Source of the DNA: a virus
Lineage: Duplodnaviria > Heunggongvirae > Uroviricota > Caudoviricetes
Virus record (IMG/VR): IMGVR_UViG_2617270945_000017
Strand: one strand, 5' to 3'
DNA length: 6,906 nucleotides
Below the pieces are notes generated by a model that had not been told where the DNA came from, searched no databases, and saw nothing but the letters and a program-made list of their open reading frames with translations. A program made the position numbers and the translations under genes. This document shows positions 1-6,280 of this stretch, in pieces (within the stretch, counting starts at the first letter, position 1; each line of letters begins with the position of its first letter).

Positions 1-1175
<1,175 letters not shown>

Positions 1176-2043: not shown

Positions 2044-2598
2044 TCATTTATCTCCGACCGGAAACATCTTATACAGTGTCGATACACCAACATCATAGAT
2101 GATCGCTACCTTCTGGCGAGGAATTCCTGCTGCAATTAATCGTCCGGCCTGCTCCCATTGTTCTGGTGTAAGTTTGGGGCGACGTCCACCAATTCGTCCC
2201 TGTGCGCGAGCTGCTTCCAGTCCAGCTTTTGTTCGTTCAACAATCAGTTCACGCTCCATTTCAGCGAGGGCACCCATCACATGAAAGAAAAAGCGCCCCA
2301 TTGGGGTACTGGTATCAATTGAATCCGTCAGACTACGAAAGTTGATACCTCGTTCGCGCAACTCCTCCACCAGCACGACAAGATGCCGCATACTGCGCCC
2401 CAGTCGGTCCAGTTTCCAGACCACCAGCGTGTCACCTGCCGATAATGTCCTGAGCAGCTTTTTCAGTCCTGGTCTGTCGGACTTTGTACCGCTTATCTTG
2501 TCTTCAAAAATCAGCTCACATCCTGCACAGTTCAGCGCATTACGTTGTAGATCGGTATTCTGGTCATTTGTTGATACACGTACATAGCCAATAAGCAT
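2044..2598 (-). CDS. Serine recombinase, DNA invertase of the Hin/Gin/Cin/Pin family, 184 aa
   Basis: ATG at 2598 is preceded by AGGGGGA 7 nt upstream. The N-terminus MLIGYVRVSTNDQNTDLQRNAL has the catalytic-Ser motif of small serine recombinases; the protein also has GRIGGRRPKLT and a C-terminal HTH (VGVSTLYK). It resembles E. coli e14 Pin and phage Mu Gin over its whole length, from memory. The 196-aa ORF in the track starts 12 codons further upstream. Confidence 0.88.
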   Translation of the reverse strand: MLIGYVRVSTNDQNTDLQRNALNCAGCELIFEDKISGTKSDRPGLKKLLRTLSAGDTLVVWKLDRLGRSMRHLVVLVEELRERGINFRSLTDSIDTSTPMGRFFFHVMGALAEMERELIVERTKAGLEAARAQGRIGGRRPKLTPEQWEQAGRLIAAGIPRQKVAIIYDVGVSTLYKMFPVGDK

Positions 2599-2655
2599 GT
2601 TAAATCCCCCTGGTAAAAGCAGGAATGATGCCATTTGCTCGTTATTTCTGCATTT

Positions 2656-3219: not shown

Positions 3220-4110
3220 TCACCCCCTGAATCCTGCCGGGATCTGGCTGTAGTCCACATTGTCGTAACTGGCTTTGAAGTACGGGTCTTCACGTTTTTC
3301 TGTGTGCGTGCTGACGGACGGCGATAAGCGCAGGGAAAGCTCATCCCATTTTTCCCGCAACTTCGACGGGCTGAGCACGTTACGGCACCAGAACGGATCG
3401 CGGCTGACGCGGCTGTACATCTCGCAGATTTGTTTGTGAGTACGACCATCCTGCACACACATCAGGCGAATTTCGTTTGCCCAGGCTGTCCAGTTAGGTT
3501 CTTTGGGACGAACCACCTCGCCGTCACATTCGGCGGCCTGCTCGTACAGGGCGATGATTTTTTTCCAGAGCCACTGTGCGCAGGTCAAATCATCCTGCGT
3601 TCCCCACTGGCGCTTTTTAGGGCTGAATACAACCGCATCAGGATGGCGAGTTAAAAAATCCTGTTCATCCATCTGCGTGTCCGGTTGCGAAGCGTCCGGA
3701 CGAGAAGGTTTTTTATCTGATGGATCATGTTTTGATTTTACTGACGGATCCCCGCCAGATTCTGACGGGTGAAAACCCGCTTTTTTGCCAGATTTCGACG
3801 CATCAAATTTTGACGGGTCAGATTTTGATGCGTCAGATTTTGACGGGTCAGAATCTGACAGTTGAGAAAATGCCGCTGCCTGAAGCTTCGCAACGTTAAG
3901 CTGATAAACATTCGACGCATTGCGGTTATCCGGTCTTAAGTCAGATTTCGTAATTGCACCTGACGTGCATTGCTCAAGTTTTTTAGCCAGCACAAAACTG
4001 GCTTTTTTATAGCCATTGAAAACCAGCCGTAAGTAGCCAGGTGTTGAGCCAACTTTTCCGGCCAACTCGCCCTGCTGTTCTTTGGTTAAAGAGTCCCAAT
4101 ACGCTTTCAT
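3220..4110 (-). CDS. Replication-initiator-like protein with N-terminal Cro/YdaS-like HTH and an iteron-encoded repeat linker (lambda O-like architecture), about 296 aa
   Basis: ATG at 4110 with GGAGGT 9 nt upstream. The N-terminus MKAYWDSLTKEQQGELAGKVGSTPGYLRLVFNGYKKASFVLAKKLEQCTSGAITKSDLRPD resembles YdaS/Cro-type HTH proteins, including the ...LRPD ending. The middle has pentapeptide repeats (SKSDA/SKSDP/SKFDA) encoded by tandem 15-bp DNA repeats. It sits directly divergent from the repressor. The C-terminal domain was not identified. The 381-aa ORF in the track is an upstream extension. Confidence 0.7.
   Translation of the reverse strand: MKAYWDSLTKEQQGELAGKVGSTPGYLRLVFNGYKKASFVLAKKLEQCTSGAITKSDLRPDNRNASNVYQLNVAKLQAAAFSQLSDSDPSKSDASKSDPSKFDASKSGKKAGFHPSESGGDPSVKSKHDPSDKKPSRPDASQPDTQMDEQDFLTRHPDAVVFSPKKRQWGTQDDLTCAQWLWKKIIALYEQAAECDGEVVRPKEPNWTAWANEIRLMCVQDGRTHKQICEMYSRVSRDPFWCRNVLSPSKLREKWDELSLRLSPSVSTHTEKREDPYFKASYDNVDYSQIPAGFRG
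3737..3862. repeat. Iteron array, putative phage replication origin embedded in the replication gene
   Basis: 15-bp units of form TCAGATTTTGACGGG: four contiguous copies at 3803..3862 (TCAAATTTTGACGGG, TCAGATTTTGATGCG, TCAGATTTTGACGGG, TCAGAATCTGACAGT), two more at 3755..3769 and 3788..3802, and a partial copy near 3737. An AT-rich stretch lies alongside at about 3700..3745. Confidence 0.65.
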
Positions 4111-4200: not shown

Positions 4201-4875
4201 ATGAAAACAATCCATGACATCCGGCGGTCTAACGCCAGAAAACTGAGAGATGGTGTTGGCGGGAATTCTTCCTTTGCCACTATGATTGATCGCGAGCCAA
4301 CCCAGACCAGCAGGTTTATGGGAGATGGTGCTACTAAAAATATCGGTGACAGCATGGCACGACACATCGAAAAATGTTTCGACCTACCTGTCGGATGGCT
4401 CGATCAAGAACACCAGACAACGAACATCACAAAAAAACCTGATGTTTCAATCACTAATAAACAAATCACATTAGTCCCTGTCATATCATGGGTACAGGCC
4501 GGAGCATGGAAAGAAGTTGGATATTCTGAGGTTGATTTGAGCACAGCAGAAACGTATCCCTGCCCTGTACCCTGTGGGGAAATGACTTATATCTTGCGGG
4601 TGATAGGTGATTCAATGATTGATGAGTACCGCCCGGGAGACATGATTTTTGTCGATCCTGAAGTACCTGCCTGCCACGGTGACGACGTTATTGCATTGAT
4701 GCACGATACAGGTGAAACCACCTTCAAAAGGTTAATAGAAGATGGGACACAGCGTTATCTCAAAGCGTTAAACCCAAACTGGCCTGAGCCTTACATTAAG
4801 ATCAACGGTAATTGCTCTATAATTGGTACAGTGATTTTCTCAGGAAAACCAAGAAGATACAAAATCAAAGCCTAA
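4201..4875 (+). CDS. CI-like phage repressor with XRE-type HTH and LexA/S24 autopeptidase domain, 224 aa
   Basis: The C-terminal domain carries the S24 Ser-Lys dyad motifs (RVIGDSM... and ...TTFKRL) and WVQAG upstream. The N-terminus has an HTH-like ...IGDSMARHIEKCFDLPVGWLD. The gene is divergent from the Cro-like gene across the operators. There is no Shine-Dalgarno before the ATG at 4201, which fits a leaderless transcript. Confidence 0.85.
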   Translation: MKTIHDIRRSNARKLRDGVGGNSSFATMIDREPTQTSRFMGDGATKNIGDSMARHIEKCFDLPVGWLDQEHQTTNITKKPDVSITNKQITLVPVISWVQAGAWKEVGYSEVDLSTAETYPCPVPCGEMTYILRVIGDSMIDEYRPGDMIFVDPEVPACHGDDVIALMHDTGETTFKRLIEDGTQRYLKALNPNWPEPYIKINGNCSIIGTVIFSGKPRRYKIKA

Positions 4876-4914: not shown

Positions 4915-4947
4915 TTGACAATGTACCTTTGAGATACATAATGTACC
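4915..4947 (+). promoter_or_regulatory. Near-consensus sigma-70 promoter with an embedded operator copy (PL-like)
   Basis: -35 TTGACA (4915..4920), 16-bp spacer, -10 CATAAT (4937..4942). The spacer contains ATGTAC-ctttgag-ATACAT (4921..4939), the same TGTAC-N7-(G/A)TACA motif as the two operators at 4113..4185. A second ATGTACC follows at 4941..4947. Confidence 0.65.
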
Positions 4948-5119
4948 CAAGAGAAACAACGAACAGGCAGGACGCCCACGAAGTAGCCGCCTGGGGCATA
5001 TGAAGTCCAGGATGATTCGTTGAGTCATGTTGTGCCACTAGGCACTCATGTTAAAGCAGGTGTATGAAATGAAAGTCCAGATTTTAAACAATAACTGTGA
5101 AGTCGTTTGGGCGTAAAAC

Positions 5120-5479: not shown

Positions 5480-5770
5480 AACTATTTCCTTCTTGGCTAT
5501 ATGAAAACACCAAGATACCACCGAGCCTGAAGTGGTGAAAAGACAGGCACATAACAGCTAAGTATTTTCAACCAGAGAGAATCCTTAGCGTTGTGGTGAA
5601 TGCGGCTCAGCGCACGCGGGTTAAGGTTGAGGCTGACAGTCGACCTTCTGTGGATACCCACCCGCCTGGTGTGCAACCTTCGCCAGGCACCGGGAGGCAC
5701 CCGGTACCACAACTTTATGCTGTGTGTAGTCCTCGCGGTACCAGTTTGTACACTTGCTTCCGGCTGGTAT

Positions 5771-5870
5771 CGCTCTTTTTACAAAACAGAGAAGAACATC
5801 ACCGGACGACGGGCTCATAACCCAATCCATCCGGGCGGCAGTCACCGCAGGTGTTCTTCTCTGTTTTGTG
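5771..5870 (+). promoter_or_regulatory. boxA-like motif followed by a long perfect hairpin in the leader of the downstream operon
   Basis: CGCTCTTTTTACAA at 5771..5784 resembles the boxA consensus (CGCTCTTTA / TGCTCTTTAACAA). ACAAAACAGAGAAGAACA at 5781..5798 is the exact reverse complement of 5852..5869, giving an 18-bp perfect stem around a roughly 50-nt loop. It ends about 35 nt before the Shine-Dalgarno of the CDS at 5918. Confidence 0.4.
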
Positions 5871-5917
5871 GAGAAACCAACCGACCTTGCAGGGTCGATA
5901 TGATGAGGAGCAGCAAA

Positions 5918-6280
5918 ATGGCTAGCGAACGCAGTACTGATGTGCAGGCATTTATCGGGGAGCTGGACGGCGGCGTATTTGAAACCAAAATCGGCGCAGT
6001 TCTCAGTGAAGTCGCTTCCGGTGTGATGAACACGAAAACCAAAGGTAAGGTCTCACTCAACCTGGAAATCGAACCATTTGATGAGAACCGTGTGAAAATC
6101 AAACACAAACTCTCATATGTTCGCCCGACTAACCGCGGGAAAATTTCCGAAGAAGACACCACCGAAACGCCGATGTATGTCAATCGCGGTGGTCGCCTGA
6201 CTATTCTGCAGGAAGACCAGGGACAGTTACTGACTCTTGCCGGTGAACCTGACGGAAAACTCCGCGCAGCAGGTCGTTAA
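5918..6280 (+). CDS. Conserved hypothetical prophage protein, 120 aa (possibly YfdP-like, recalled from memory only)
   Basis: ATG at 5918 with GAGGAG 7 nt upstream gives MASERSTDVQAFIGELDGGVFETKIGAVLSEV... The long upstream extension of the 226-aa ORF in the track is Arg/Cys/Leu-rich and lies in the GC-rich structured region, so I treat it as non-coding. Confidence 0.7.
   Translation: MASERSTDVQAFIGELDGGVFETKIGAVLSEVASGVMNTKTKGKVSLNLEIEPFDENRVKIKHKLSYVRPTNRGKISEEDTTETPMYVNRGGRLTILQEDQGQLLTLAGEPDGKLRAAGR

Follow-up and report, generated by a model that had tools for sequence, protein, structure and literature searches.

A probable lambda-type iteron origin within an O-like initiator gene of SfII/SfIV/CPS-53-type prophages, orphaned in a prophage remnant by an in-frame deletion

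The stretch of viral DNA analysed here (6,906 nucleotides (nt), IMG/VR record IMGVR_UViG_2617270945_000017, Caudoviricetes; hereafter the window, meaning its whole length) is a decayed lambdoid prophage, in which a cluster of 15-base-pair (bp) repeats lies within the open reading frame (ORF) 3220-4110. With a probability of about 0.8, comparative sequence analysis identifies these repeats as the iterons of a replication origin of the lambda type, which lies where an O-like initiator gene of a lambdoid prophage of the SfII/SfIV/CPS-53/Kati type encodes its interdomain linker. The DNA of this candidate origin is intact in the window. The origin most likely survives as an orphaned relic within a cryptic prophage of the SfII/SfIV/CPS-53 type, because a deletion has exchanged the DNA-binding domain of the initiator for the helix-turn-helix (HTH) of the Cro-like protein YmfT.

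Direct reading of the repeats distinguishes six clear 15-bp units, of which five are contiguous, at a position corresponding to nt 300-408 of the 942-nt intact O-like gene, and in addition a degenerate seventh unit (Table 1). A first-pass annotation made from the sequence alone had counted at least six units, with four of them contiguous, and the run is extended here to five, the fifth being the most degenerate. Its placement of the repeats in frame inside the coding sequence 3220..4110, encoding the pentapeptide SKSD(A/P), is borne out by translation of the minus strand, on which the units encode the peptide SDSDPSKSDASKSDPSKFDASKS. The tandem array and the lone sixth iteron are set apart by a 21-bp spacer (3766-3786). 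Tandem Repeats Finder (TRF) reports the array at 3789-3852 with a period of 15, 4.3 copies and 81% matches, and offers an alternative period-30 reading with 88% matches. A 30-bp super-period, apparent from TRF and from the alternating CCG/GCA spacers, was discarded in favour of a 15-bp unit, since this alternation is absent from the peptides of other genera. When up to two mismatches are allowed, the core TCARAWTCTGAC matches 15 times on both strands of the window, with 12 of these matches confined to 3754-3859. In dinucleotide-preserving shuffles the expectation is 2.56 +/- 1.69 and none of 200 shuffles reaches 15 matches, hence the repeats represent a non-random excess.

The reading frame which carries the repeats had been taken for the replication gene itself and turns out to be a deletion fusion, comprising residues 1-61 of YmfT and residues 79-313 of the O-like protein, without the native winged-helix N-terminal domain. 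Megablast assigns 3220-3929 to the 3' 710 nt of a gene for a 313-residue 'helix-turn-helix domain-containing protein' (WP_021575887 type), which thousands of E. coli genomes carry upstream of yfdN, and assigns 3927-4110 to the 5' end of the YdaS/Cro-like gene ymfT. Base-by-base comparison with the intact prophage of E. coli 90-9281 (L001) reveals a 1197-bp deletion, by which ymfT has lost its 3' end and the O-like gene its codons 1-78, and with which the cII-like ymfL and a DUF4222 gene are gone; only seven substitutions distinguish 3220-3929 from the intact prophage. The lost segment of the O-like protein contains the HTH_36 winged-helix domain (PF13730, residues 23-70), which is present in the relatives L001, Kati, SfII and SfIV. 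A first hint of a foreign N-terminus came from Pfam, where the window ORF gives only a sub-threshold YdaS match. The remainder is clearly O-like, as the best PHROG match of the ORF is 391, replication initiation O-like (E 2e-97), and the C-terminal domain is 40% identical to O of lambda, 434 and phi80 (tblastn, E ~7e-17). In Pfam, the intact homologue falls under HTH_36 (PF13730, E 4e-11), with no match to Phage_rep_O (PF04492), the family of lambda O (E 6e-36); the N-terminal domain of the homologue also gives weak matches to DnaD_N and RP-C. Because the fusion lacks the native winged-helix domain, the replication and binding tests proposed earlier with the fusion protein would probably fail irrespective of the hypothesis, and since the locus is a relic, such tests need the intact initiator of a relative and not the window ORF. 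The orphan origin could fire only when an intact cognate initiator is supplied in trans.

Purifying selection on the DNA of this region was revealed by comparing homologues. A scan of one genome per species, with alignment of the N-terminal domain, provided 80 loci from many Enterobacterales genera, from which 76 distinct alignable genes were analysed. The majority-codon fraction reaches a mean of 0.89 and a median of 0.96 in the conserved element (alignment columns 98-226), as compared to a mean of 0.54 in the N-terminal domain, where values lie at about 0.3-0.7 (Mann-Whitney p 4.5e-20). Certain codons of the element are fixed, such as TCA (75/75), TCT (62/62), GTA (75/75) and GAT (76/76). 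At identical residues, codon identity over all pairs of the 76 genes amounts to 0.84 in the element versus 0.41 in the N-terminal domain. The 48 genes sharing one type of C-terminal domain exhibit a codon profile that rises from 0.51-0.63 in the N-terminal domain to 0.82-0.95 in the element and falls back to 0.49-0.71 in the C-terminal domain, so that the element forms an island bounded on both sides by drifting domains, and the peptide encoded by this island is less conserved than either flank. According to the 76-gene codon profile, the conserved element spans approximately 3679-3870. The interval 3737-3862, previously given as the extent of the origin, does contain real repeats and is too narrow for the conserved element.

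A closer comparison of five phage genes, from L001, Klebsiella phage 1 LV-2017, Citrobacter phiNP, Yersinia YeP3 and EKP1, led to the same result. Their N-terminal domains share 61-88% amino-acid identity and three of the five have unrelated C-terminal domains, yet in all five the 15-bp array (3.7-4.7 copies) occupies one and the same place in the gene and is nearly alike in sequence. In all 10 pairs, codon identity at identical residues is higher in the linker (0.67-0.92) than in the N-terminal domain (0.25-0.48; Fisher p 2e-7 to 0.03). Within the linker, the genes resemble each other more in nucleotides than in amino acids. Every relative sharing the N-terminal domain has the array at about nt 310-380 of the gene, and it is kept despite unrelated C-terminal domains in Klebsiella phage 1 LV-2017, Citrobacter phiNP, Yersinia YeP3, EKP1 and phiP27. 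The CAGAWTCTG core (W, A or T) is retained even at other spacings (33 bp) and in other peptide contexts, e.g. FHPPESGVQGG, in Proteus, Providencia, Symbiopectobacterium and phage phiP27. Among sequenced phages, the element is present in 46 records, always inside a gene named 'replication protein O', 'primosomal protein' or 'helix-turn-helix protein'. Homologues lacking repeats at the DNA level had been named beforehand as an observation that would speak against an origin; the homologues do carry the repeats, and their DNA is more conserved than the peptide. Five O-like loci of enterobacterial type, with N-terminal domains 61-89% identical, come from records labelled Elizabethkingia phage EKP1, Vagococcus, Chryseobacterium, Martelella and Pseudomonas lundensis (L005, L098, L122, L127 and L161), and these out-of-place host labels probably reflect contamination or host misassignment in the source records.

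The anatomy of the element could be resolved from 442 units at the 76 loci. Each unit consists of a 12-nt core with the consensus TCA(A/G)A(A/T)TCTGAC and, behind it, a 3-nt spacer variable at every position. Inside the core, the position matrix reveals third-codon positions to be conserved equally with first and second positions. The core contains a 9-bp near-palindrome, CAGA-W-TCTG, which is perfect in the first tandem unit and in the lone unit and has one mismatch in the inner units; each repeat thus has the dyad symmetry expected of a dimer binding site. Neighbouring units are spaced at 15 bp in 274 of 366 pairs. Between genera the number of units ranges from 3 to 11, with 8 in E. coli strain ESY003 and 4-7 tandem units in 80 E. 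coli-type viral contigs (five in 74 of the 80); the scan of viral contigs returned only N-terminal domains that are 100% identical, and hence is informative for copy number and not for divergence. Reading along the gene strand 3' of the array, the 21-bp spacer is followed by the lone copy, the AT-rich tract and a short GC-rich end. The lone copy, (T/C)CAGAATCTGG, is the best-conserved unit of the family (TTT 73/73, GAA 66/66 and TCT 72/74 in codon-table columns 194-201). The AT-rich stretch that had been noticed beside the repeats is confirmed as a local minimum of GC content and constitutes the candidate unwinding region. In the sense of transcription it follows directly on the last iteron, an order shared with lambda. 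The array itself occupies the equivalent of the lambda position, as the annotated iterons of lambda are located at nt 349-433 of gene O with spacings of 20/24/23, and BLASTP places the linker of the O-like protein opposite that segment.

Two GATC sites are located in the AT-rich tract, where the Asp codon is GAT in 76/76 and 68/68 genes, as opposed to the iterons, in which GAC is preferred. In several intact relatives (L001-L004 were compared), genes for Dam-like N6-adenine methyltransferases are found immediately or shortly downstream of the O-like gene. The invariant GATC sites together with the nearby Dam-like genes suggest a methylation-linked control or melting of the origin. At the distal limit of the element, homologues with differing C-terminal domains part ways just past the GC-rich end. 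A 16-nt inverted repeat bracketing the element (3684-3699 / 3879-3894, 88% complementary) was set aside as probably due to chance, because its upstream arm is unconserved in the Klebsiella phage gene.

Repeat sequence covaries with the type of N-terminal domain. In Erwinia mallotivora and Mixta tenebrionis (L168 and L170, at about nt 1850-1990), palindromes of the TTGACCCGTCAA type replace CAGAWTCTG, with the GATC-bearing AT-rich segment kept. As compared to all carriers of CAGAWTCTG, their N-terminal domains have the start of the recognition helix changed from G-x-STVR to KSKTTVS and the wing from RRxGNRN to RKSGGRN, the Erwinia/Mixta switch being a single lineage event. More distant HTH_36 initiators have repeats of their own at the same gene position with a 21-24-bp spacing, namely GGGGTGGGGCAGGAGCTGCCC in Stx2 phage F451, CCTAGTGACAAAATGTCACCA in Vibrio phage D67 and AGGTATGCCAGCAGATAGCACAGG in Aggregatibacter phage S1249. 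The N-terminal domain and the element behave as a module that is joined to at least three types of C-terminal domain, and the gene following this module encodes a DnaC-like loader in phiP27, a toprim protein in EKP1 and a primase-helicase in F451. Such a pattern is as would be expected if the N-terminal domain and the origin set specificity and the C-terminal domain sets the helicase partner.

A model consistent with these features can be proposed for the intact phage. Dimers of the HTH_36 winged-helix domain at the N-terminus of the initiator would bind the CAGA-W-TCTG cores, five at 15-bp spacing and one lone; the resulting nucleoprotein complex would destabilise the adjacent AT-rich tract with its two GATC sites, and the C-terminal domain homologous to lambda O would recruit the helicase. 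The linker peptide would be of low complexity (S/K/D/P) and its synonymous sites frozen because the DNA serves as binding sites and coding sequence at the same time. The architecture compared earlier to that of lambda, with a different repeat sequence and period, is supported by the comparative evidence as far as the linker array and the AT-rich tract are concerned, and fails for the window ORF, which is not a cognate functional initiator.

Several observations weigh against the assignment as a lambda-type origin. At this locus the cognate DNA-binding domain is deleted and no intact initiator is present. The AT-rich tract is small, with approximately 50 bp at 70% AT. The 15-bp period corresponds to about 1.4 helical turns, which places neighbouring sites on near-opposite faces of the helix and falls short of the 20-24-bp spacing of lambda and the other families examined. 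Part of the element encodes a well-conserved peptide, FDPSESGGDPSV, which may itself matter to the protein. In L001 (4864-8418) and in phage Kati (L171, 98-6241), the neighbourhood contains no P-like, DnaC-like or helicase gene, and without a loader gene the downstream steps of the lambda model, including helicase recruitment, are not accounted for. A search of the literature on CPS-53, yfdO, SfII and SfIV brought up only general lambdoid and P22/L accounts, and neither a specific origin nor a report of repeat binding or initiator-dependent replication for this family; the SfIV genome paper makes no mention of an origin.

The element could alternatively represent a mechanistically distinct subclass of phage origin, defined by densely arrayed 9-bp palindromes at a 15-bp (1.4-turn) period, an HTH_36/DnaD-N-like initiator, Dam-GATC-controlled unwinding and direct recruitment of host DnaB-DnaC, which we regard as speculative and rather unlikely. 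On that account, phages of the SfII/SfIV/Kati type would do without a helicase loader of their own, and the lambda-O-like C-terminal domain would recruit host DnaB-DnaC directly. In addition, the orphan copy could be fired in trans by an incoming SfII/SfIV-type phage, causing local chromosomal over-replication, or alternatively could titrate the initiator of such a phage. Ectopic copies of the lambda origin are known to titrate the initiator (PMC4488673).

Explanations other than an origin have to account for the same conservation. The repeats might be a mere repetitive peptide, i.e., a low-complexity S/K/D/P linker grown by replication slippage with functionless DNA, and the in-frame units encoding SKSD(A/P) with a polymorphic copy number (4-7, 8 or 3-11 units), as in slippage-prone coding repeats, would agree with this. 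Yet synonymous sites are near invariant in 76 diverged genes while the amino acids vary; Ser is encoded by TCA or TCT at fixed positions although six codons are possible, with nucleotide identity above amino-acid identity; the freeze continues for about 110 nt past the repeats through non-repetitive sequence; and the core survives in other peptide contexts and spacings. The excess of codon identity in the element over the N-terminal domain is not the neutral drift of a slippage repeat, and this explanation is highly improbable. An overlapping reading frame or a structured RNA could likewise freeze synonymous sites, and in the window all alternative frames are open over the array, including ORFs 3720-3899 (+) and 3738-3920 (-), while the palindromes could form hairpins, a folding capacity also apparent from a spurious microRNA-precursor match at 3786-3860. 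In a permissive-threshold Rfam search of the whole window, this spurious match was the only one at the repeats; it scores 30.7 bits where the gathering score is 97, and no RNA family accounts for the element. Across the 76 loci, none of the alternative frames is regularly open over the element (four are open in none or one of the 76 and the best, an antisense frame, in 33), and a spacer free to change at all 3 nt of every unit is at odds with overlapping codons, leaving hardly any likelihood for either form of this explanation.

More weight, although still an unlikely prospect, attaches to a DNA cis element with another task, either an operator array, by which the initiator or some other phage protein would control early-right transcription, or a conserved recombination boundary promoting the exchange of C-terminal domains. 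The comparative data reveal selection on DNA and not replication as such, palindromic repeats are also typical of operators, and the element stops exactly where homologues switch the type of C-terminal domain. Homogenisation by recombination would, however, conserve all positions alike, whereas spacer codons, unit number and the segment between the array and the lone iteron vary with specific nucleotides fixed. Lambda iterons can do both, so that autoregulation as an operator would not exclude origin function. What decides in favour of the origin is the combination of repeats and an AT-rich tract behind them, within an initiator gene and where lambda has its origin, with covariation of repeat and N-terminal domain, which is a specific signature of lambdoid origins.

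Table 1. Coordinates of the candidate origin, the fusion gene and other features of the window
Feature	Position	Strand	Basis or remark
Conserved cis element, candidate origin	3679-3870	-	nt 292-483 of intact O-like gene; near-frozen synonymous sites
Tandem array of five 15-bp iterons	3787-3862	-	Direct reading, TRF, motif scan, inverted-repeat analysis
12-nt cores	3847-3858, 3832-3843, 3817-3828, 3802-3813, 3787-3798	-	Gene strand
Iteron unit CCAGATTCTGACGGG	3755-3769	+ (letters)	Direct reading
Iteron unit CCAGATTTCGACGCA	3788-3802	+ (letters)	Direct reading
Iteron unit TCAAATTTTGACGGG	3803-3817	+ (letters)	Direct reading
Iteron unit TCAGATTTTGATGCG	3818-3832	+ (letters)	Direct reading
Iteron unit TCAGATTTTGACGGG	3833-3847	+ (letters)	Direct reading
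Iteron unit TCAGAATCTGACAGT	3848-3862	+ (letters)	Direct reading
Degenerate seventh unit	3737-3751	+ (letters)	Direct reading
Lone sixth iteron	3754-3769	-	Gene strand TCAGAATCTGGC; CCAGAATCTGG in many relatives
AT-rich tract, candidate unwinding region	3700-3749		Composition; GC 0.30, local minimum
Two GATC sites in AT-rich tract	3723-3726, 3747-3750		
GC-rich distal end of conserved element	3679-3699		Relatives carry GGTTGC-nnn-GCAACC
Fusion ORF, 296 residues	3220-4110	-	YmfT(1-61) + O-like(79-313)
5' segment of Cro-like ymfT (YdaS family HTH)	3928-4110	-	Provides start codon and ribosome-binding site of the fusion
Coding region of lambda-O-like C-terminal domain	3331-3645	-	Residues 173-277 of intact protein
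Deletion junction	3927/3928		1197 bp, in frame, relative to intact prophage L001
ymfK, LexA/cI-like repressor gene, divergent; immunity region	4201-4875	+	
PerC/YfdN-like gene, truncated to 113 residues	2882-3223	-	
Pin/Hin-type invertase gene	2044-2634	-	
IS5-family transposase gene	115-1107	-	

The prophage context agrees with a remnant. In intact L001, ymfK is followed in the opposite orientation by ymfT, ymfL (cII-like, PHROG 101), the DUF4222 gene, the O-like gene and yfdN, and the early-right operons of L001 and Kati contain the cro-like ymfT, the cII-like ymfL, the DUF4222 gene, the O-like gene, and genes for PerC, a methylase, RusA and others. In the window, genes of the yfdP/yfdQ side lie beyond ymfK. 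The identical 296-residue product is encoded on at least 10 public contigs carrying the same remnant prophage, in the order integrase adjoining proA, yfdQ, yfdP, ymfK, the fusion ORF and tail-fibre fragments with the invertase, and no lysis or head genes are present in this remnant. The transposase, the invertase and the truncated PerC/yfdN gene stand side by side, with the early region joined straight to the tail-fibre/invertase region; the prophage is heavily decayed because a second large deletion or rearrangement joins these two regions. Two further observations concern the other side of the window. Rfam gives a match to STnc100, a gammaproteobacterial small RNA, at 5560-5782 (+) over the full model length at 39.5 bits (E 4.7e-6), short of the gathering score of 47, and this sub-threshold match overlaps the 5' part of ORF 5600-6280. 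A 20-bp unit, AATGTACCCAAGAGAAACAT, is present in two tandem copies at 4920-4958, just downstream of ymfK.

An origin within the initiator gene is textbook knowledge for lambda, P22 and Stx phages, and in this respect the architecture is ordinary; for the SfII/SfIV/CPS-53/Kati phage group it seems to be undescribed. In the records of the SfII/SfIV-type group, the gene is labelled 'helix-turn-helix protein' or 'primosomal protein' and no origin is marked. The main value of the present findings thus lies in annotation, as a probable origin, made up of CAGA-W-TCTG iterons repeated every 15 bp and an AT-rich tract in which two GATC sites lie, is defined for widespread enterobacterial temperate phages and prophages, including the Shigella serotype-converting phages SfII and SfIV, CPS-53-like prophages of E. 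coli, and phages of Klebsiella, Yersinia and Citrobacter. The element also provides a clear worked example of an overlapping DNA signal that freezes the synonymous sites of a coding region.

Among known systems, the closest parallel is the lambda origin in gene O, with which the element shares direct repeats with an internal dyad, a location in the linker-coding middle of the gene and an AT-rich tract downstream. The C-terminal domains of the two initiators, in lambda O the one that interacts with P, are homologous (40% identity over residues 173-277; BLASTP of the O-like protein against lambda O, E 1e-24), and the order of the pR operon is alike, with a cI-like gene opposite the cro-like, cII-like and O-like genes. 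Unlike lambda, which has four iterons with an AT-rich tract and a Phage_rep_O N-terminal domain, the initiators described here have an HTH_36 N-terminal domain and an unrelated iteron sequence; five of the six iterons stand in tandem, at a period of 15 bp where lambda has 20-24 bp, and one stands alone. Further differences from lambda are the two invariant GATC sites in the AT-rich part and the absence of a P gene next to the O-like gene in L001 or Kati. Winged-helix initiators acting on reiterated sites beside an AT-rich unwinding element are also characteristic of iteron plasmids such as pSC101, R6K and P1, whose iterons mostly lie outside coding sequence, measure 17-22 bp and keep roughly to the helical phase; no homology of the O-like initiators to the Rep proteins of these plasmids was demonstrated. 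In the Bacillus phage SPP1, one origin is located inside the initiator gene 38.

The Stx phage origins (933W and P27, with six iterons) have the same architecture, with an iteron number that varies between related phages (PMC7466680). For Stx phages, O binding and the requirement for the iterons have been demonstrated experimentally. The N-terminal domain of O from Stx2 phage F451 is approximately 43% identical to that of the O-like protein over residues 25-94, and the Stx repeats differ from those of the SfII/SfIV type in sequence (GGGGTGGGGCAGGAGCTGCCC) and in their 21-24-bp spacing. More generally, repeats in the initiator gene have been described as the origin in lambda, P22, phage L and Stx phages (PMC8022706, PMC7466680). 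Gene 18 of P22 and gene 18 of phage L contain phage-specific repeats inside the initiator gene, which are read as the origin (PMC8022706), as is proposed here for the O-like gene; the repeat sequences and initiator N-terminal domains differ, and their partner is the DnaB-type helicase gp12. In phage L these repeats are six imprecise copies of an 11-bp unit (PMC8022706), and short periods such as the 15-bp one of the SfII/SfIV/CPS-53/Kati group therefore have a precedent.

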